The notes under the pieces: generated by a model
Told to the model about the DNA's origin: nothing
The model's database searches: none
The model's input: only the letters and a program-made list of their open reading frames with translations
Assembly: GCA_034004025.1 (NCBI GenBank)
Contig: JAVEXM010000004.1
Coordinates: forward strand, 1-59,441
Reading direction: 5' to 3'
Source of the DNA: Bacteroidales bacterium
Lineage (GTDB): Bacteria; Bacteroidota; Bacteroidia; Bacteroidales; VadinHA17
Length of the DNA: 59,441 nucleotides
In this document: piece after piece, positions 45,622 through 56,286 of the stretch
How positions within the stretch are numbered: the stretch's first letter is position 1
How the letters are laid out: each line of letters begins with the position of its first letter
Made by a program: the position numbers and the translations under genes

Positions 45622-48222
45622 ATGAAAAAAACAGCCCTGATATTCCTGCTTGTCGCCTTCAATGTTCACCTGACGGCACAAATCTCCGAAGGGGGCCTTC
45701 CGCCCTCTTACAAGGCTCCGGGAACAAAAGCCGCGGCGGCAGTCGCAGCATACAGACTGCAGGCTATCGATACAGCGGGACTTGCAGACTATAACCGGGA
45801 AAAAGCCTTCCCGCTGAGATATGCTGTTCTTGAAGAGGTTGACCTCGACCTGAGAAAGGCAGGCACAAAATCACTGCTTCCTGACGGCAGCACACTGTGG
45901 CAATACAGGATCAACTCGCCGGATGGCCTGTCTCTGCAGGTTATTTTCCGGAAATTTCTTATCCCGGAAGGAGCACGCCTCTTTCTCTTTGATGAGGCCT
46001 ACACCCATGTCAGGGGAGCTTTCACCAACCGCAATATCACTGAGGACCTCTCATTCGTCACCGCTGACCTTCCCGGTGATCATATGATCATCGAATACAA
46101 TGAGCCTGCAGATGTGCCTTTCGGGGGCGAGGTGATCATCGGACGGATTGGACAGGCTTATGTTGACATCTTCGGACTCAAATCGGCAAATATCGACCAG
46201 GACGGATATATCCCGGTTAACTGCGAGGAAGGCATTCCCTACCAGGACCAGAAACATGCGGTGTGCAAGTACAGCTTCAACGACGGGGTTTACAGTTACC
46301 TCTGTTCAGGAAGCCTCATCAACAACACCAGGAATGACGGGACGCCATATTTTCTTACGGCCGCTCATTGTATAAGCACCGCTACGGAGGCATCCTCCAT
46401 AGTTGCCTGGTTCAATTATGAGGAGGCCTCCTGCACCGGCGTTTCACTCTACTCCTCACAGACACTGACAGGCTCTTCGCTTATGACAACCGGTAGCATG
46501 TCAGACTATACCCTGCTAAAATTCAGAAAGCCTGTGCCGCCCTCCTACATGCCCTATTTTGCAGGATGGGATATCACAGACACTCCCCCCCGGTACTCTG
46601 CCGGCATTCATCATCCCCACGGCAGAACGAAGAAGATATCGCTCGACTATGATCAGGCACAGTCAGTAGACAGGGTCCTGAGCTGGGAGAGCGGTGGAAG
46701 CTCTCCGGCTAACTCCCATTGGAATGTCTTTTTTGATGACGGGATAACCTCATCGGGCTCATCAGGGTCACCGCTGCTTGACCAGAACGGGAGAATCACC
46801 GGACAGCTTCACGGAGGCAGCTCCAACGATTACTACGGCAAAATGAGCTACTCATGGTCCCATCCGAACAGCTCCTACGAACCTCTGTCAACTTATCTCG
46901 ACCCCGATACCACCGGCGTGAAAACCGTCGACGGATATTATCCGCCGGAGAACCTTCCCGATGCCCAGTTCCTCTCGGATTTCTCCGCCGTATGCCTCGA
47001 TGCACCCTTTGACCTGACCGGTTTCTCGGCCTTCGACCCCCTGGGCTGGGAGTGGACGTTCAGACCATCCGGTGTCACGTATTATGACGGTACCACCTCA
47101 TCGTCCCCCTCACCCAGAGTATCCCTGAATTCTGCCGGTCCCTATTCCGTGACCCTCAGGGTGACCAATGCAGCAGGACAGGGTGCTCTGACACTGGAGA
47201 ATTACATTACGGCCGGCAGCTCACTTAAACTGTCAGCCTATCCCATGGATCTGACAGACTCATGCATCTTCTCATTTACAGGCGTTGCTGTAGAGGCCTG
47301 CGGTGCCGATGCCTACCTCTGGACACTGTCGGACAACTCTGACGACCTCTTTTATCTGGAAAACAATACCGTTAACCCGGCCGTGATAAGAGTACGTGAC
47401 GGTGTCGAGCTTACAGAAAGCACGGATATTGAGCTGACAATAACCGGTATACAGGGCACCTGCCAGAGCCTCCTGGCTTTCAGCATCCCGCTCGAGGCTC
47501 AGACAAACGATAATGTAATGCATGCTGTCGCAATTGCAATAGGTGAGAACGGACCCTTCTCAAACAAATGTGCAACCATTCAGGACCGTGAACCCGTGCC
47601 GCCGTACGACAGCTGCACGGGACAGCTGTCGTGGTGCGATGAGTACAGCACCGGTGAAGATATAATCGAGAACAGCGTATGGTTTTCGTTTACCCCTGAG
47701 GTGAATCAGAAGATAATGCTCGCCTCTATGGGCATGGATAACCAGGTAGCCGTTTACAGGACTGACTCGCCGCAAGATCTCCTGGCCGGTAACTATACTC
47801 TGATAGGTGCAAATGACGACTTTACGGACACGGACTATAACGCCCGCATAAGCTCGATGGATGTCGAGGCCGGCCGGAAATACCTGATCCAGGTCGACGG
47901 CAGCGGAGGAGGACTGGAAGGCAGTTTCTACCTCACCCTGAGTGTTCTCAGCAGCACCGGGGAACTCTCCGCGATTAGCGAAGAGATCAGGGTATATCCC
48001 CAGCCCGCAGGCGATGTCGTTACAATTGAGTCTGCTGCATTTGCCGGATGCAGGGAGGTGCGGGTGGAACTTATAGACAACAGCGGCAGGGTAATATGCC
48101 AGGAGCTCATTGCCGAATCATCAGGCAGGCTGCAGCTGCCTCTGGGCGATCTGCCCAAGGGGGTTTATTTTGCACGCATCTACTGCGGCAGTAAGGTCAC
48201 CGTTACAAAAGTGGTGCTTTAG
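45622..48222 (+). CDS. Secreted S1 serine protease (lysyl-endopeptidase-like) with PKD-like domain and T9SS type-A CTD
   Basis: Signal and propeptide; CSGSLINN, TAAHC, DYTLL, HHP.G..KK and GSSGSPL; PKD-like YSVTLRVTN; CTD VYPQP..LPKGVYF..KVV. Confidence 0.88.
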   Translation: MKKTALIFLLVAFNVHLTAQISEGGLPPSYKAPGTKAAAAVAAYRLQAIDTAGLADYNREKAFPLRYAVLEEVDLDLRKAGTKSLLPDGSTLWQYRINSPDGLSLQVIFRKFLIPEGARLFLFDEAYTHVRGAFTNRNITEDLSFVTADLPGDHMIIEYNEPADVPFGGEVIIGRIGQAYVDIFGLKSANIDQDGYIPVNCEEGIPYQDQKHAVCKYSFNDGVYSYLCSGSLINNTRNDGTPYFLTAAHCISTATEASSIVAWFNYEEASCTGVSLYSSQTLTGSSLMTTGSMSDYTLLKFRKPVPPSYMPYFAGWDITDTPPRYSAGIHHPHGRTKKISLDYDQAQSVDRVLSWESGGSSPANSHWNVFFDDGITSSGSSGSPLLDQNGRITGQLHGGSSNDYYGKMSYSWSHPNSSYEPLSTYLDPDTTGVKTVDGYYPPENLPDAQFLSDFSAVCLDAPFDLTGFSAFDPLGWEWTFRPSGVTYYDGTTSSSPSPRVSLNSAGPYSVTLRVTNAAGQGALTLENYITAGSSLKLSAYPMDLTDSCIFSFTGVAVEACGADAYLWTLSDNSDDLFYLENNTVNPAVIRVRDGVELTESTDIELTITGIQGTCQSLLAFSIPLEAQTNDNVMHAVAIAIGENGPFSNKCATIQDREPVPPYDSCTGQLSWCDEYSTGEDIIENSVWFSFTPEVNQKIMLASMGMDNQVAVYRTDSPQDLLAGNYTLIGANDDFTDTDYNARISSMDVEAGRKYLIQVDGSGGGLEGSFYLTLSVLSSTGELSAISEEIRVYPQPAGDVVTIESAAFAGCREVRVELIDNSGRVICQELIAESSGRLQLPLGDLPKGVYFARIYCGSKVTVTKVVL

Positions 48223-48273: not shown

Positions 48274-50673
48274 TCATTCGCCGTTGCCAGCCGGCCTGAA
48301 CAGCATCTCATACTTCTTTGCAGACTCGACAGCCTGATCCGTAAAAGGCTCACTGTAGAATCCGTTATTGACATACGTCTCCGTCTGCGAGAGATAGAAG
48401 GGACTTCCCGGGATGCCGGAAGTGCCGGTGGGTATGACTGTCAACGATTTATCCCAGTCGGCCGTGTTGAAGATATGCCTTTCCGAAGCACCGTGGTACG
48501 CCCCGAAATTTTCCCTGAAGGCATACGGCTGAACAGTATGATAGCTGCCCCCAATGCCGTAGGTCTTTGAGTTGAGCCCCAGCAGCCTGTCGAGGATCTT
48601 CACACCACCCATGGGATGTTCAAGAGTGAGGGTGTGTATGTTACCCCACTGCCACCTCTCTCCGAACTCACCGTACCTTGCGGTGAGTGTGTCAACAGCA
48701 GATGTTATGCTCAGAGCAATGATCTGATCCATGGTCTCAACCTCCGGCGTGGTTGTATTGTCAACCCACGCGTCCGGCCCTTCATTGACCATCCGGTAGA
48801 TGTAAAAGTCATGCTGACGGCCGTGAGGCGATCCGTAGAGCTCGTCAAGCTCATCACTCATTATATGCCGGGCCAGCTCTATCCGTATGAACTCGAACAG
48901 CGTGGGCGCAATGAGTGATCCATCCATCGCATAATCCCATCCCTCAAGTTCTTCAAGGGCAGCCTTCACCCCGGCGCCAGGATCACTGATCGCCTCCGAT
49001 GCCCTAAGTATCACCGGCGTCATCATGGCAGCATAGGCAGAGTGGTTGTCTGTAATCATTCTTTTAAAGTCGTCAATCCCCAGTATCTCTTTCTCTGCGG
49101 CCATCTCCCTGATACGCAGTATGCGGTAGGGCATGGCAAACTCCCCGCTTATATAGAAGGGATAGTCGCCTGTCACTGTACGCTGGTTGGCCGATGAGAC
49201 AAAACCGTTTTCAGGATTGAAAGAAGAGGGCAGTAGCTCAAATGGTACATATCCCTTCCACTCGTATTCGTCCGTATCTCCCTTGCGGGGCAGCAACCCG
49301 GTACCCTTTCTGACCGGAATACCGCCGCCGGTTTGAATGCCTATGTTTCCGTCAACATCTGCATAGGCGAAGTTCTGACTGATCGAACTGAAATAGCTAA
49401 GCGCAGTCCGAAAATCATCCCATGACCCTGCCCGGTTGAGCAGATAGACAGCCCTGATCTCGTCACTGTAGTCAAAGCCTGACCAGCACATCGTCAGCAC
49501 TTCATCATCTATGCCCCTCATGCCCGAGATGACCGGACCATGATGAGTGTACCTTATGGTGCGTGTCTGCGAAGAATCATCAGTGATCTTCAGTACCTCC
49601 TCACTGGTTTTGAAGGGCAGCCACTCTCCGTTATAGAGATAATTGCTGCCTGTGGAATCAACCGTCTCCACAAACAGGTCAATATCGTCAACACTGAGGT
49701 TGGTCAGCCCCCAGGCTATCCTGTCATTGTGACCCGCAACTATGTAAGGCTCGCCCGGGAAGAGTACTCCTGTAACATTGATCCGGCCCGGAACGACCTG
49801 ATGGATCTGCATCCAGAAGCCGGGCACATTGAGACCGAGGTGCATGTCGTTTGACAGTATCGGTTTCCCTGTCTCGCTCCTGCTGCCCGAGACAGCCCAG
49901 TTATTGCTTCCCGAGAGAGAGACAATGCCCAGCTCCTCCATCTCCCTGAGTGAACCAACTGCTTTCAGTGCATCCTCCAATATTTCCTCATCCAGCTCAA
50001 AGCCGGGAAATACAACCTCGTCAACATGGTTCCAGTCGGCTATCAGCTCAGAGGCCTTCTCCGGTCCGAGCTTCCTGCCCAGCCTGTAATTGTTGATCTC
50101 ATCGCTGAGATTTGATGATGCCAGATCCCAACCGATAAAGCCAATGATATTGGCAATATCTGTCAGAGTCCAGGGCTCTGGCTGGTACCCCAGCACCCTG
50201 AATTCCGGCGGCAGCTTCCTGCCGGTCTCTTTTATCCATGCATTGACTCCGTCAGAATACGCCTGAAGCGTTTCAAGCACCTCCGGAGCCTCCTTTTCAA
50301 GCACCAGCCGTGATTTTTCCGACATACCGAGAGCTCTCAGAAAATGATCCGTCTCCGTCATATCCCTCTTGAAGAGCTCCGACAGCCTGCCCTGCGTAGC
50401 ATGCCTGACCATATCCATCTGCCAGAGCCTCTCCTGGGCGGTTATGTAACCGGTCATGAAATAGAGGTCGTGCTCATTTGTGGCATAAATATGAGGTACT
50501 CCGCGCTCATCGCGGATGACCTTCACATCGTCATTGAGCCCGGCTACCGGCTTCTCGCCGTTAAGTCCGGCCAGCCCCGACCGGCGAAGGGAGGGTACGA
50601 TGATCAGGCCTGCCAGAATGGCTGCCCCAATGATGGCAGCAATGACAATCAGGGATACTCTGAGGATTTTCAT
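48274..50673 (-). CDS. Penicillin acylase family (S45 Ntn hydrolase)
   Basis: N-terminal TM from ATG 50673; RDERGVPHIYA, QERLWQMD, GSNNW (beta-subunit Ser) and NDMHL. Confidence 0.93.
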   Translation of the reverse strand: MKILRVSLIVIAAIIGAAILAGLIIVPSLRRSGLAGLNGEKPVAGLNDDVKVIRDERGVPHIYATNEHDLYFMTGYITAQERLWQMDMVRHATQGRLSELFKRDMTETDHFLRALGMSEKSRLVLEKEAPEVLETLQAYSDGVNAWIKETGRKLPPEFRVLGYQPEPWTLTDIANIIGFIGWDLASSNLSDEINNYRLGRKLGPEKASELIADWNHVDEVVFPGFELDEEILEDALKAVGSLREMEELGIVSLSGSNNWAVSGSRSETGKPILSNDMHLGLNVPGFWMQIHQVVPGRINVTGVLFPGEPYIVAGHNDRIAWGLTNLSVDDIDLFVETVDSTGSNYLYNGEWLPFKTSEEVLKITDDSSQTRTIRYTHHGPVISGMRGIDDEVLTMCWSGFDYSDEIRAVYLLNRAGSWDDFRTALSYFSSISQNFAYADVDGNIGIQTGGGIPVRKGTGLLPRKGDTDEYEWKGYVPFELLPSSFNPENGFVSSANQRTVTGDYPFYISGEFAMPYRILRIREMAAEKEILGIDDFKRMITDNHSAYAAMMTPVILRASEAISDPGAGVKAALEELEGWDYAMDGSLIAPTLFEFIRIELARHIMSDELDELYGSPHGRQHDFYIYRMVNEGPDAWVDNTTTPEVETMDQIIALSITSAVDTLTARYGEFGERWQWGNIHTLTLEHPMGGVKILDRLLGLNSKTYGIGGSYHTVQPYAFRENFGAYHGASERHIFNTADWDKSLTVIPTGTSGIPGSPFYLSQTETYVNNGFYSEPFTDQAVESAKKYEMLFRPAGNGE

Positions 50674-50795
50674 AGCGGTTTTGTTTTGTTGCCTAAACTT
50701 ACATAAAATCACCCGGTTTTTATATGCAAATTCCCAACAGGAAAATTTTCCGGAAAAAATCAGACAGTGTAACTATCCTGAACAGCAGGCAGGGT

Positions 50796-51800
50796 TCATC
50801 TTTTGAAAAGAATTCTTGTGCCCTGCGGACAGTGAGCACAGATATCTACAGTCTGGCGGTCCTTCATCACAGCCGCCCTGAAATCCCGGTACCTCCCGCT
50901 GCGCCAGATCTCCGCAAAACTCTGGCTGTTCAGATTTCCCATTGCATGCACACCATGCTTGTCGAAACAGCACGGAACCACATCGCCGTCAGTGGTTATC
51001 ACGGCTGAGGACCACATCCGCAGGCAACCTCGCGATGGTGACCCTGCATGCCGCCAGGCTCCGTCATCACCCCTGACATACCGTGATCTCAGGTCATCTG
51101 AAGACAACCACTCTCCCGCCCTGGCAGGGTCAAGCACCTGCATACTCTTTATTATGAACCCTGCCCCGACTGATCCGGCAAAGGCAGCAGCAGCGCGCAC
51201 CTCATGCTCATTTCCCCGGTGCAGCAGGAACTGCAGCACGATCTTCAGCCCGGACCGCCTCTCCCTGACAGTGGCAGCCAGCCTCCTGATCCCCTCCTTC
51301 ACAAGTTCATGATCACCGCCGTGCCTGTAGATGCCATAGCTCCCCGGAGTCACCCCGTCATATGAAATGATTACCTTCTTCAATGACGAGCCTGCCAGGC
51401 CGAGGCATCTCTCCCTGTCAAGATAATGGCCGTTGGTGGCTATCACCGGGTTCATACCTGCAAAGAGTTCAGCTATACGGAAGAATTCAGGGTGCATCAT
51501 GGGCTCACCCTGGAAACTTAGCCAGGCTGAGAGTGTAAATCCTCTGATCTCATCAGCAATCTTCTCAGCAAGAGTATACGCGAGGAAACTGTTTCCCCTT
51601 GAAAGCAGTCCGGCACCGGTGACACACTCGGGGCATGAGAGGTTACATACGCTGCTCAGCTCGATGCTTATCGCCGGAGGCAGGGGAGCATCAGCAGGAA
51701 TACCGGCAAACCTGCTGGCAGCGTACGAAAAAACAGAGTAACTTGCATTCAGAAACCTGGAGGCCATGGCAGAGGCAAATGAACAATTTTTTTCTCTCAA
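50796..51800 (-). CDS. Radical SAM protein with SPASM/Twitch domain
   Basis: CNLSCPEC, QGEP and TNG; C-terminal C..MW..DGDVVPCC.D and C..C. Start may be ATG 51767. Confidence 0.9.
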   Translation of the reverse strand: MREKNCSFASAMASRFLNASYSVFSYAASRFAGIPADAPLPPAISIELSSVCNLSCPECVTGAGLLSRGNSFLAYTLAEKIADEIRGFTLSAWLSFQGEPMMHPEFFRIAELFAGMNPVIATNGHYLDRERCLGLAGSSLKKVIISYDGVTPGSYGIYRHGGDHELVKEGIRRLAATVRERRSGLKIVLQFLLHRGNEHEVRAAAAFAGSVGAGFIIKSMQVLDPARAGEWLSSDDLRSRYVRGDDGAWRHAGSPSRGCLRMWSSAVITTDGDVVPCCFDKHGVHAMGNLNSQSFAEIWRSGRYRDFRAAVMKDRQTVDICAHCPQGTRILFKR

Positions 51801-51804
51801 TGTA

Positions 51805-51833
51805 TAGGGTATGGGGAATGTTTCCGGTCTTAC
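51805..51833 (+). promoter_or_regulatory. Candidate ECF-sigma promoter
   Basis: TAGGGTA-N14-GGTCTTAC about 45 nt upstream of ATG 51879; I found no TAnnTTTG in this interval. The ECF assignment is inference. Confidence 0.45.
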
Positions 51834-51878: not shown

Positions 51879-53183
51879 ATGAAAACAAAAATTTTTTACT
51901 CAGTAATAGCTTCTGCACTCCTGCTGATAATGCCGGCAGGAGATATCAGCGCATCCGGCTCCCCTGACAGGAACAGGAAGGAGAAGGTACAGCAGCAGTT
52001 GATAACAGTCAGGGGAAGGGTGGTCGATATCGAGACACGTGTCCCTCTTGTCTTTGCAGGGATAGCCGTGCAGGGAAGCAACGTATCCACCGTGTCAAAC
52101 CTCGACGGTGAATTTACCCTTAAGGTCGGCAGCGATCAGACAGGTAATATCGAGGTTTCATATGTGGGCTACAAGAACAGGGTGGTGCCCATCGAAGAGT
52201 TGAAGACCAACGGGCAGCGAAACGTGATCGAGCTCGAGACCGCACTGATACCTATTCAAGAGGTAATCGTAAAACCCATCCTTCCTGAAGAGATCATGCT
52301 GGAGGTCATAGACCGATTCGATGAGAACTATCCGAATCTGCCCAATGACATGACCGGGTTCTACCGTGAAACCATCAGGAAAAACCGAAGCTACATATCC
52401 ATCGGTGAGGCCGCAGTTGAGATATTCAAGGCCCCCTACCAGAACGACCTGCGCTTTGACGCCGTCAGGCTGTACAAGGGAAGAAAGAGCAATGACGTGG
52501 AGAAGATGGATACCGTGCTCTTCAAGCTTCAGGGCGGTCCTACAACCACTCTCTACCTCGACGTGGTCAAGAATCCCGAAACCTTCCTCACCAGGGAGGC
52601 ACTCAGCCAGTATGACCTGGAGCTGTCAAACATAGTGGTCATCGATGACAGGACAAACTATGTCATCAAATTCATCCAGAAGCCTTCGATAACCACACCC
52701 CTGTACCAGGGACGTCTATTCATCGACATAGAGACCTACGCCGTGGCACAGGCAGAATTCGCCTTCAATCTTGAGAACAAGGAGCTGGCAGCTTCAATGT
52801 TCATCAGGAAGAAACCGATGGGTATGCAGGTGACGCCCGAGGTGACATCCTACTACGTACGCTACCGCGAGATGGACGGCAAATGGTACTTCAGCCACTC
52901 AAGGGCAGAGGTCAAATTCAAGGTCAACTGGAAGAAGAAACTGTTCAACACCAACTATACCACTATGTCTGAGCTGGCAATAACAGACCGTACAGAAGAG
53001 GATGTTGTGAAATTTGCAGCAAAAGAGAGAATCCGCCCGACCGACTTCTTCACCGAGGAGGTGGCAGCATTTGCCGATCCCGAGTTCTGGGGCGACTATA
53101 ACGTGATTGAGCCCGATCAGAGCATTGAGGCAGCCATCAGGAGACTGAGCAGAAAACTCAGATTCAGCGACAGAAACGAATAG
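51879..53183 (+). CDS. Exported CarboxypepD_reg-like domain protein with uncharacterised C-terminal domain
   Basis: Signal peptide; VRGRVVD..PLVFA..TVSNLDGEF..SYVGY; C-terminal domain paralogous to that of 54727..56286. Confidence 0.85.
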   Translation: MKTKIFYSVIASALLLIMPAGDISASGSPDRNRKEKVQQQLITVRGRVVDIETRVPLVFAGIAVQGSNVSTVSNLDGEFTLKVGSDQTGNIEVSYVGYKNRVVPIEELKTNGQRNVIELETALIPIQEVIVKPILPEEIMLEVIDRFDENYPNLPNDMTGFYRETIRKNRSYISIGEAAVEIFKAPYQNDLRFDAVRLYKGRKSNDVEKMDTVLFKLQGGPTTTLYLDVVKNPETFLTREALSQYDLELSNIVVIDDRTNYVIKFIQKPSITTPLYQGRLFIDIETYAVAQAEFAFNLENKELAASMFIRKKPMGMQVTPEVTSYYVRYREMDGKWYFSHSRAEVKFKVNWKKKLFNTNYTTMSELAITDRTEEDVVKFAAKERIRPTDFFTEEVAAFADPEFWGDYNVIEPDQSIEAAIRRLSRKLRFSDRNE

Positions 53184-53200
53184 ACCGGTGTCGTGAGCGC

Positions 53201-53737
53201 ATGAAGAGTGACAGTGAGATTATAAGGAGGATCAGGAACGGTGACAAACAGGAGTTTGAAAAACTGTTCCGCTCCTCCTATGTTTCACTGGTGCGTTATG
53301 CAAAGACTCTCATCAGGGACCATGATACGGCTGAAGAGATAGTACAGGAACTGTTTTTCAGACTGTGGCAGGACAGAGATAAGCTGAACATCAAAACCTC
53401 ACTGAACGGATATCTCTTCCGCTCGGTACACAACAGGTCGCTCCATCATATTGAACATCAGCAGGTGGTCAGCCGTCATGCCGGCGAGGTCGCTGCCAGT
53501 GCCCAAAGCGTATCAGAACCCGTGACCGAGGCAATCTACTACAGCGAGCTCCAGGCAAAGGTTGCCGGAGTACTTGAACGGCTGCCGGAAAGATGCAGGA
53601 TGATTTTCAGGATGAGCAGGTTCGATGGGTTGAAATACAACGAGATAGCTGAGAAGCTTGCGGTTACCGTAAAGACGGTTGAAGCAGACATGGGCAGGGC
53701 ACTGAGGGAATTCAGAAAAGCATTGGCAGAACAATGA
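53201..53737 (+). CDS. ECF sigma-70 factor (FecI-like, Bacteroidota expansion family)
   Basis: AEEIVQELFFRLW, YLFRSVHN, LPERCRMIF.MSR.DGLKY.EIAEKL and KTVE. Confidence 0.95.
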   Translation: MKSDSEIIRRIRNGDKQEFEKLFRSSYVSLVRYAKTLIRDHDTAEEIVQELFFRLWQDRDKLNIKTSLNGYLFRSVHNRSLHHIEHQQVVSRHAGEVAASAQSVSEPVTEAIYYSELQAKVAGVLERLPERCRMIFRMSRFDGLKYNEIAEKLAVTVKTVEADMGRALREFRKALAEQ

Positions 53738-54720
53738 ATAAGATAAACAATACAAAACAAATGTCAGAACAGGATTGGGCTGATGCAGCCGCGTGGCTCT
53801 CCGGAGAGAACACGGCAGGCGAAGAGGCTGCCCGTATCCTTGTTAATGAAGACAATGATATAATGAAAAAGTGGAACGACCTGAAAAACATTGATAACGA
53901 AGTAATTGATGTTGACAAAGCATGGGAGAAGCTGAACCGGAGGATAGAGACAGAGACTCCGGTCATAACCCTGAACAGGCGGTCATTCATGCACTCCTTT
54001 GCAAGGATAGCCGCCACAGTCATCATCGTAACAGGACTGGGATGGCTGTTTTTCAAGGTGGCAGGTCCGGACAGGATCACTGTCTCATCAGGGTCCGATG
54101 AAAAGAATATCGAGGTGCTGCTCGCTGACGGTAGCATGGTCTATCTCAACCGTGACAGCAAACTGACATATCCGGAAAATTTCGGGAGCGACAACCGTAC
54201 GGTTTCACTTGAAGGGGAAGCGTTTTTTGACATCACTCCTGACGCAGCACACCCATTCATCATCGATGCCGGCAGAGCCAGCGTGAAAGTGCTCGGCACC
54301 TCATTCAGCGTCATTACTGACAACGGTAACGATGAAGTGGAGGTCTTTGTCGAATCAGGAACCGTGATACTCTCCAGCAATAACAGCTCGCATACCGTGA
54401 CACTGGAACCGCAGTTCGTCGGACGGATCTCCGACAGGGGTTCATCACAGGCAGTAAACACAGATGCCAACTACCTCTCATGGCATACTGACATGCTCAT
54501 CTTTGACGGGGAGAGGCTGGAGACGGTCTTCGCAGATCTTAAACGTACATTCAATATTAACATCGTGGCCGCAGACCCGGCAATCAACGACTACCGGCTG
54601 ACCTCACCCTTTGTGGATCAGCCCCACGATACAATTATTAAGGTTATTTGCACTACCTTTAACCTTCATTCTGTCAGGGAAGAAGGTGTTTACAGGCTTT
54701 ATCCCGGACAGGTACGGTAA
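53734..54720 (+). CDS. FecR-family anti-sigma factor
   Basis: ATGA overlap with the sigma gene; TM; LADGS.VYLN..S.L.YP, LEGEAFF and VLGTSF. Confidence 0.94.
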   Translation: MNKINNTKQMSEQDWADAAAWLSGENTAGEEAARILVNEDNDIMKKWNDLKNIDNEVIDVDKAWEKLNRRIETETPVITLNRRSFMHSFARIAATVIIVTGLGWLFFKVAGPDRITVSSGSDEKNIEVLLADGSMVYLNRDSKLTYPENFGSDNRTVSLEGEAFFDITPDAAHPFIIDAGRASVKVLGTSFSVITDNGNDEVEVFVESGTVILSSNNSSHTVTLEPQFVGRISDRGSSQAVNTDANYLSWHTDMLIFDGERLETVFADLKRTFNINIVAADPAINDYRLTSPFVDQPHDTIIKVICTTFNLHSVREEGVYRLYPGQVR

Positions 54721-54726
54721 AAACCG

Positions 54727-56286
54727 ATGTGGCCGACAGGTTCAGTGAGAAACAGGGGAATTGCGTTTGCCGCCCTGCTTCTGCTGTCGTTGCAGCTTTT
54801 CCCTCAGGATAACATCCTTGACAGAGAGATCCGGCTGCCCGGCAACAGCATCAGGGTCGCAAAGGCACTCAGCGAGGTAAGCAGCCTTACAGGCTATCTC
54901 TTTACCTATGACTCCCGGATAATAAGCTCAGACAGGTCCTTTTCGCTTCCTTCATATGATATGCCGCTCAGGGAGTTGCTGGATTCGGTCTCGGATGACC
55001 CTGACGTCAGAGTCTCAGTGATAGGCAAGCATATCATTCTTTACCGCGAGAGTGCCATCCCTCCTGCTGCCGGTCAGCCATATGACTCCAACCAGTCAGA
55101 TATCTTCATCAGCGGCAGGGTCACCGATGCGGAGACTGCGGAACCTTTGCCCTATGCTACTATAGGCATCAGCCACCGCGGCAGAGGCACGGTGACGAAC
55201 TTCAACGGCGACTTCATCCTGAGGCTGGACAGCCAGTTCCTTGAAGACACACTGTCAGTATCATATGTTGGTTATGTCAACCGGCTGATACCGGTCAGGA
55301 GCCTTCCCGGTAACATCCTGACCATCAGCATGGAGAGAGACTATATCCCCATCCCGGAGATAATCATCCGGGCCCAGGACCCACGCCTCATCATCAGCAA
55401 AATCCTCTCTTCCGTAGCCTCCAACTATGGAACTACCCCTGCCCTTCTTACCGGATTCTACCGCGAAGGGGTCTACCGCAAAAAGGAGCCGCAGGTCTAT
55501 TCCGAAGCTGTGGTGCAGATTTACAAGAGCCCATATGCAAGATCACTGCAGAGCGACCAGATTAAGGTGCTTCGCAGCCGTAAGATAGAAAACCTGGAGG
55601 TAAAGGATACCCTGGCTGTCAGGCTTAAGGCAGGACTCGGTGCAACACTCACACTGGACGTCATGAGAAACCTGTTCGATTTCCTTGATCCCGCATCATT
55701 CGATTCCTATGAATATCATCTGACAGATATAGTGACAATAGACGACCAGTCGGCATTTGTGGTATCATTCCGCCAGAGGGAAGATATTACCGAACCTCTT
55801 ATGCAGGGCGACATCTATATCAACGTCGACAACTATGCCGTGGTGCTTGCCGAGTTTGAGATCAATCCGCTCTATGTTGACCAGACAGCCACATCCTATA
55901 TCAGCAGGCTGCCCCGCGCCTACTCCATGAGACCCGAGTATGTCAGGTACAGGGCCCGTTACCGCGACGTCGGCGGAAGATACTTCCTGTCTCACGTAAG
56001 GGGAGACCTGGGTTTCATGGCCAGGGGCAGGAAGAGGCTGTTCAACAGCCGCTTCAATATCTTCTTTGAGCTGGCTGTCACAGACCACCGGACAACAGAT
56101 GTCTCCCGCTTTGATCATGACGAGCTGACCCCTGCTTATTCGGTATTCTCAAATACAATTACCGGATATGACGCCGGATTCTGGAAAGGATTCGATTTTC
56201 TCAAGCCCGAAGAAGATCTGGTTGAAGCACTGCAAAGGCTGCAGCTGCGACTTGGAGAATTCGCCGGCCAGGATTCCCCTCAGTAG
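54727..56286 (+). CDS. STN + CarboxypepD_reg-like domain protein lacking TonB plug and barrel
   Basis: Signal peptide; STN-like LDREIRL..ALSEVSSLTGYLFTY..LRELLD..IGKHIIL; ISGRVTDAETAEPLPYA; only 519 aa and ends QDSPQ. Confidence 0.85.
   Translation: MWPTGSVRNRGIAFAALLLLSLQLFPQDNILDREIRLPGNSIRVAKALSEVSSLTGYLFTYDSRIISSDRSFSLPSYDMPLRELLDSVSDDPDVRVSVIGKHIILYRESAIPPAAGQPYDSNQSDIFISGRVTDAETAEPLPYATIGISHRGRGTVTNFNGDFILRLDSQFLEDTLSVSYVGYVNRLIPVRSLPGNILTISMERDYIPIPEIIIRAQDPRLIISKILSSVASNYGTTPALLTGFYREGVYRKKEPQVYSEAVVQIYKSPYARSLQSDQIKVLRSRKIENLEVKDTLAVRLKAGLGATLTLDVMRNLFDFLDPASFDSYEYHLTDIVTIDDQSAFVVSFRQREDITEPLMQGDIYINVDNYAVVLAEFEINPLYVDQTATSYISRLPRAYSMRPEYVRYRARYRDVGGRYFLSHVRGDLGFMARGRKRLFNSRFNIFFELAVTDHRTTDVSRFDHDELTPAYSVFSNTITGYDAGFWKGFDFLKPEEDLVEALQRLQLRLGEFAGQDSPQ

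Follow-up and report, generated by a model that had tools for sequence, protein, structure and literature searches.

Described signalling systems and the four-gene unit

FecR-type signalling is taught as being tied to an outer-membrane transporter, and the RseB/MucB proteins are known to sense lipid signals. The locus considered here is a four-gene unit located at positions 51879..56286 of the window, i.e., the whole stretch of 59,441 nucleotides that was analysed (contig JAVEXM010000004.1, 1-59,441, from Bacteroidales bacterium GCA_034004025.1). It encodes an extracytoplasmic function (ECF) sigma factor, a FecR-type anti-sigma factor, an STN protein devoid of transport barrel and an STN-less paralogue of the latter, an architecture that we regard as practically certain. 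Like the TonB-dependent transducers (FecI-FecR-FecA, PupI-PupR-PupB and the Bacteroidetes ECF240 sigma/FecR/STN-SusC systems), it combines the same gene order with a TIGR02985 sigma factor and a FecR at +1, and its gene 4, at +2, starts with a front end of the STN, N-terminal extension (NTE) and TonB-box type. Unlike them, gene 4 has neither plug nor 22-stranded barrel, and the module has no SusD.

ECF240 is described as having a TonB-dependent receptor at +2 and SusD at +3 and as lacking conserved promoters (PMC7826278); here, +2 is occupied by a barrel-less protein and a conserved promoter precedes the module. The VreA protein of P. aeruginosa, from the PUMA3 system (VreA-VreI-VreR), is presented in two papers as a barrel-less, probably periplasmic STN protein (PMC2729926, PMC4971064). 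It resembles gene 4 in being a soluble STN protein encoded with an ECF sigma factor and an anti-sigma factor. However, it has only ~240 aa, carries a TolA/TonB-like C-terminal domain, is controlled by PhoB and is not autoregulated, whereas gene 4 carries an Ig-like NTE and a 295-aa sheet domain predicted to be LolA/RseB-like, and the predicted target of its module is an STN-less paralogue.

The four open reading frames (ORFs), all on the + strand, encode proteins of 434, 178, 328 and 519 aa and are separated by 17, -4 and 6 nt, in agreement with the operon delineated by the first-pass annotation. Gene 1 (51879..53183, 434 aa), the likely effector, comprises a signal-peptide-like N-terminus, an NTE (CarbopepD_reg_2, ~aa 42-123), a TonB-box-like stretch (aa 124-132) and a predicted LolA/RseB-like domain (~aa 133-428). 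Gene 2 (53201..53737, 178 aa) encodes an ECF240-like ECF sigma factor that matches TIGR02985, a family of Bacteroidetes ECF sigma factors, with 170.4 bits for a cut-off of 126.4. Gene 3 (53734..54720, 328 aa), placed at +1 to the sigma gene, encodes a FecR-type anti-sigma factor matching FecR and FecR_C, with one hydrophobic stretch at ~aa 90-110; both products are thus those initially named. Gene 4 (54727..56286, 519 aa) encodes the barrel-less STN protein, a predicted periplasmic sensor. It is followed by a convergent OmpA/MotB-family gene, with no SusD at +3.

Between the products of genes 1 and 4, identity amounts to 33% in an alignment of 422 aa (E 3e-82), where all the motifs on which the first-pass annotation had founded their common domain can be seen. 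In gene 4, a signal peptide is followed by an STN signalling domain (54802..55056, aa 26-110), a SusC-type, Ig-like NTE (55093..55344, aa 123-206), a TonB-box-like linker, IPIPEIIIR (55345..55371, aa 207-215), and the shared domain of ~295 aa (55372..56256), whose model has a predicted LolA/RseB-like fold of the lipid-carrier type. The STN nature of this N-terminus, read at first from the letters, is borne out by the family, since Pfam STN is matched by 21 of the 39 aligned gene-4 proteins at E<=0.05 (best 3.5e-10). The window's own copy has no Pfam STN match; the model of its residues 26-110 shows a pair of helices packed against short strands, the order of these elements being that of an STN. 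This segment also gives a weak profile match to the PupA signalling domain 2a02 (E 0.045), and its model resembles the secretin N-domain 3gr5 (Z 6.9). Gene 1 does lack an STN-type segment, its NTE already beginning at ~residue 42. CarbopepD_reg_2, the SusC N-terminal extension, is matched by both proteins, and the model of the gene-4 NTE superposes on the SusC NTE 9hfj (Z 12.9, rmsd 1.8, 80 aligned residues). Sequence searches of the PDB returned matches to the NTE and weak matches to the STN only.

No plug or TonB barrel family of Pfam is matched by gene 1 or gene 4, and the TIGR04056 match of gene 4 is restricted to positions 3-82 of the 981 positions of the profile. The gene 4 protein ends with ...DSPQ and only 2/93 of its orthologues have an aromatic last residue (F), in keeping with the initial claim that plug, barrel and terminal aromatic residue are all missing. 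Lipobox-like motifs are found in 2/93 gene-4 and 2/79 gene-1 orthologues. Because plug and barrel families are unmatched and both aromatic C-termini and lipobox-like motifs are rare, the two proteins are predicted from their sequences to be soluble and exported. Gene 4 is further predicted to be periplasmic on the basis of its signal peptide, its lack of lipobox and the lack of any match to a type IX secretion system (T9SS) tail.

The module was surveyed in 151 genomes of the same order and in 301 genomes across the phylum. The shared domain is matched in 45 of the former (40 at E<1e-20) and in 24 of the latter (10 at E<1e-30). All of the 22 loci that have two matches ~3 kb apart display the order gene 1 - sigma - FecR - gene 4. 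Eighteen other regions have a single match: nine correspond to gene 4 behind FecR (eight with a sigma match), gene 1 not being adjacent, seven to gene 1 alone and two to one module split by contig ends. A gene-1 profile retrieved 80 held-out loci, and sigma, FecR and gene 4 are present in 73/73 of those with enough downstream DNA. These loci come mostly from Bacteroidales or Rikenellaceae metagenome-assembled genomes, and some from uncultured Bacteroides and Labilibaculum; they are not independent because many are close kin with common rSAM, motB and dxs neighbours. With 22/22 paired loci and 73/73 further loci, the neighbourhood survey proposed by the first-pass annotation reveals a conserved cluster. 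In a quick tree, 39 of the 40 STN-less copies group on one branch (SH-aLRT 98), and the orphan gene-1 copies are nested within it at about five places. This nesting inside a single STN-less branch points to an old duplication followed by repeated loss of the regulators.

A predicted ECF-type promoter and the likely output of the module

A predicted ECF-type promoter is located at 51805..51831 (+), 74 nt before the start of gene 1, with TAGGG as -35 box, a 17-nt spacer and GTCTT as -10 box. The corresponding consensus, TAGGG-N17/18-RTCWT, was recognised by inspecting the regions upstream of gene 1. It is found in 26 of the 37 discovery loci (mean 0.24 and maximum 2 in shuffles), with a spacer of 17 nt in 25 of these 26, and in 69/75 held-out loci versus 40/4000 random windows. 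By class of gene 1, it precedes 22/22 module-adjacent copies, 4/6 relocated copies (the genome having its gene 4 at another place), 0/1 second tandem copy and 0/11 orphan copies, a wider window being included for the latter. Searches with the module-sigma profile detected no sigma factor above 129 bits in four of the five orphan genomes tested, nor in G230. In the genome of the window, the site before gene 1 is the top genome-wide hit of a position weight matrix (PWM) trained without it.

Two side observations concern these regions. One genome (G371, locus L040) possesses a second STN-less copy 2.3 kb upstream of its module, without promoter motif. In the window, a radical SAM/SPASM gene (50796-51800, -) is divergent from gene 1, its start and the predicted -35 box being no more than 5 nt apart; it adjoins the module in most close relatives and is missing at distant loci.

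Since the conserved promoter before gene 1 tracks the module, gene 1 is likely the output of the latter, and its transcription by the module sigma factor can be proposed with good confidence. The first-pass suggestion of an induced effector paralogue thereby becomes likely, given the promoter found at 22/22 module loci and 69/75 held-out loci and at 0/11 orphans. The motif also precedes the sigma gene in three genomes (G242, G448 and G452), in all of which gene 1 is not adjacent; among 32 discovery loci, G242 is the only one in this situation and its gene 1, located elsewhere, has the motif too. A housekeeping promoter, TAnnTTTG, was found before gene 1 in 1/37 loci. Constitutive expression of the sigma factor is not claimed because this promoter precedes the sigma gene in 7/32 loci only and is not found in the window.

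A wider regulon was not found in the genome of the window: the other top PWM hits lie mostly inside ORFs, with one upstream of a nikR-like gene, and a relaxed search gave one correctly placed site out of 29 (that of gene 1) versus 5/81 for a reversed control. In the same way, 15 selected motif sites from G422, G405, G242 and G441 are mostly misplaced. G398 carries sigma, FecR and gene 4 with no close gene 1, and, of its 15 sites whose spacer is 17 nt long, 12 precede a gene of the same orientation by 16-145 nt, an uncontrolled count. The downstream genes (L151-L164), which include a divergent pair, encode mostly exported proteins: an esterase, two SGL-type propellers, an isochorismatase, a BamB-like propeller, a DUF3836 protein, an alpha-amylase and a STAS protein. 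A wider regulon is possible in this genome, whose genus mostly gives only gene-4-sized matches.

Several observations speak against this reading of the promoter, whose class is not exclusive to the module. The motif was derived from the discovery set, and the held-out loci, found via the gene-1 profile, are mostly close kin. Genome-wide motif counts are not above controls in five genomes. In the orphan genome G400, a 180-bit sigma factor is paired with a long partner of the barrel type, but the motif is absent. Lastly, G303 contains 11 motif sites (control 5; 4 correctly placed) and no shared-domain match for the query used; it has two related sigma factors, each with a barrel-type partner.

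G303 also encodes a 443-aa protein after a related sigma factor and FecR (L212:4820-6148), with an aromatic end and too short for a 22-stranded TonB barrel, and another short partner of 693 aa (L214:3558-5636). Both are possibly further non-canonical STN partners.

The shared domain and a proposed mechanism

In the confident AlphaFold2 models of the full gene 4 protein (pLDDT 90.1) and of the gene-1 domain alone (pLDDT 92.6, pTM 0.89), the domain consists of some ten long strands and has helices at each end, in a sheet-plus-helices arrangement. The top 10 Foldseek matches of the shared domain are RseB, MucB, DUF1329 and a LolA-superfamily protein; LolA3, LolB, LprG, lipovitellin and MTP come next (E down to 2e-7, TM 0.22-0.40). 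In the independent, wide structure search with VIA, all six rows at Z>=8 are LolA/LolB/MucB-like (Z 8.2-9.3, rmsd 3.3-7.0). For example, the Bacteroides LolA 4mxt reaches Z 9.3 (rmsd 7.0, 141 aligned), LolA3 from P. gingivalis Z 9.1 (rmsd 4.5, 181 aligned) and MucB Z 8.5 (rmsd 3.3, 125 aligned). Membrane barrels (autotransporter, porin) rank lower than these lipid carriers, with Z 5-6.2. The structure prediction and Foldseek comparison suggested by the first-pass annotation thus yield a domain that is not modelled as a membrane beta-barrel and whose best structural matches, although distant, are lipid carriers.

The ~10 long strands and the barrels present in the fold list could evoke an outer-membrane barrel that has been truncated or has diverged, or else a SusC in decay. 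This explanation of gene 4 is largely refuted and extremely improbable: lipid-carrier folds outscore barrels, the length of gene 4 is intact across >100 homologues, no terminal aromatic residue is found, helices occupy both ends of the domain and several strands have no consistent barrel-type hydrophobic alternation.

The shared domain is therefore predicted to be LolA/RseB-like, a consistent but distant assignment; Pfam LolA_like is matched by 1/39 members, and such a fold alone shows no function. The systems in which RseB/MucB act with RseA/MucA and sigmaE/AlgU are comparable in that a periplasmic LolA-like domain protein is linked to an anti-sigma factor. They differ in that the anti-sigma factor is here of the FecR type and its contact is predicted, by analogy, to involve the STN; moreover, the match is distant (TM ~0.25, ~125 residues covered).

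Other relatives of this domain are found in Bacteroidota. Searches of the ESM Atlas led to unnamed Bacteroidota clusters and to one DUF5686 lead at 0.89. DUF5686 (PF18939) is matched by 8/39 members, with at best 29.5 bits for a gathering score of 39.2 and over positions 126-248 of 669. The Bacteroidota proteins that combine CarbopepD_reg_2 and DUF5686 likewise display an NTE followed by a weakly homologous domain, but they have ~800 aa and the match, below the cut-off, is limited to the first part of the model. The DUF5686 family is itself uncharacterised, with passing mentions only in the literature searched. The NTE and shared domain are also found fused to a beta-lactamase-family (serine hydrolase) domain in a 773-aa protein (L012:1135-3456) and as a tandem unit in P0269; when longer fused forms were sought, the 17 proteins obtained all had 527-554 aa, which is weak evidence.

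These associations would suit a split receptor or adaptor, in which the shared domain is a protein dock: gene 4 would clip onto a partner whose gene lies elsewhere, either a barrel of the outer membrane or an envelope machine, and relay its state to FecR, gene 1 being a competitor for this dock. LolA-fold relatives have been solved in protein complexes (MucB-MucA, LolA-LolC), and an equivalent model was proposed for VreA (PMC2729926). However, the genome of the window (91% complete) contains no DUF5686 gene, no conserved barrel gene lies beside the module among the labelled neighbours, and the structural neighbours are mainly lipid carriers. We consider such an adaptor rather unlikely.

The linker between the NTE and the shared domain has retained an E-[IV]-[IV]-[IV]-R stretch in both paralogues, the glutamate being E211 in 71/75 gene-4 orthologues and having a counterpart in 37/43 gene-1 sequences. 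It is modelled as a low-confidence coil. The TonB box of BT1763, VDEVVV, which was tested by mutation, sits at the same position (PMC7782687). All this could indicate that NTE and linker are the active part, gene 4 informing FecR of TonB that is free and energised, while gene 1 acts as a decoy that titrates TonB. This sensor of TonB status is improbable: the motif is contained in the 88 positions of the CarbopepD_reg_2 model of Pfam and may simply have been inherited with it, and the strongly conserved 295-aa domain would be left unexplained.

Periplasmic signalling by a sigma/FecR/STN module without transport barrel is, as a whole, the best explanation found, with about an even chance of being right. 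Among its parts, the role of gene 4 as the input of FecR, by analogy with known transducers, is very probable; a hydrophobic ligand held in the modelled shared domain, as the signal, is a balanced proposal. In PupB-PupR, the signalling domain stabilises the anti-sigma factor, the STN binds the latter's C-terminal domain and release exposes it to proteases (PMC9249621). By analogy with this pair and with FecA-FecR, the exported gene 4 protein would use its STN to retain FecR and thus stabilise it. Binding of a ligand, most likely a hydrophobic one from the envelope (a lipid, a lipoprotein, an acyl chain of lipopolysaccharide or an amphipathic compound), to the predicted LolA/RseB-like domain would release gene 4 from FecR, leading to Prc/RseP proteolysis and to activation of the sigma factor. 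The flexible TonB-box-like linker may also allow TonB to pull off the STN.

The freed sigma factor would then transcribe the STN-less gene 1 from the TAGGG-N17-GTCTT promoter, and read-through across the 17-nt gap of this genome would increase the sigma factor, FecR and gene 4 as well. Gene 1 would be the working binder or carrier, a likely role because it is more conserved and often retained alone; its induction would mop up the ligand and exert a negative feedback.

A more precise version, put forward tentatively and with some doubt, is that of a hybrid switch in which the STN/TonB-box relay of nutrient transporters has been grafted onto an RseB/LolA-type lipid sensor. If true, FecR would read mislocalised periplasmic lipid or lipoprotein, a soluble protein being perhaps what TonB pulls on, and a dedicated carrier paralogue would be induced, giving a lipid-stress circuit of Bacteroidales. 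It would also provide a function for the NTE-LolA-like module present in DUF5686 proteins.

To the objections raised above about the promoter, three can be added that concern the sensor and its ligand. The resemblance in fold is remote, with TM 0.22-0.40, 8-14% identity and a Z close to what the tool calls "common". In the work on VreA, deletion of vreA left the regulon unaffected under phosphate starvation (PMC4971064). Furthermore, most of the residues that are invariant in the domain carry a charge (R246, E247, E260, D311) and would suit a polar site or an interface with a protein just as well as a lipid pocket. As these R/E/E/D residues are invariant in both paralogues, gene 1 could be an enzyme or a binder of polar ligand and gene 4 its sensing copy. 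Compared with gene 4, gene 1 indeed shows additional invariant positions (GGP, D228, K231) and its branches in the tree are shorter, and exported hydrolases of G398 are preceded by the same class of promoter. Nevertheless, no enzyme family was matched in Pfam, NCBIfam or PDB sequence searches and the best fold matches are carriers, so that we give little credit to a catalytic role.

Neighbouring features, precedents and significance

Further upstream in the window, a T9SS-tailed trypsin-like protease with a PKD domain (45622-48222, +) is encoded convergently with a penicillin-amidase-family gene (48274-50712). Elsewhere in the same genome (G000), the FecR-SusC intergenic regions of two canonical ECF loci (C83:2645-2786 and C85:8549-8652) share a near-identical stretch, in which GGAAATCG...CGATTTCC form an inverted repeat; the TAGGG motif is absent. 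BamP was considered as a relative of the proteins studied here and rejected by its description alone, which mentions a C-terminal domain made of three helices and an occurrence in Flavobacteriaceae only (PMC12611786).

No paper on this module was found in the literature searched, which covered few subscription papers and part of the ECF supplement, so that a note on a subgroup could have been missed. In two preprints from 2026 that deal with the expanded Lpt translocon, term searches showed no such protein; a term search of 10.64898/2026.10.03.756453 gave no match. The first-pass annotation knew of no characterisation of such an arrangement: this holds for the module itself, while a barrel-less STN partner has a precedent in VreA. 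The module is real and conserved, and apparently uncharacterised. Given the VreA precedent for barrel-less partners, it should therefore be seen as a further variant of cell-surface signalling.

VreA is the lone printed exception found to FecR signalling tied to a transporter. That a barrel-less version is strongly matched in 40 of the 151 same-order genomes sampled, or roughly one in four, suggests that the STN-FecR relay can be fed by another kind of protein. With a compact module, a predicted promoter and a predicted target, the sensing of envelope lipid or lipoprotein stress by Bacteroidota becomes testable, as do the role of an NTE and a TonB box without barrel and what the DUF5686-related domain binds.

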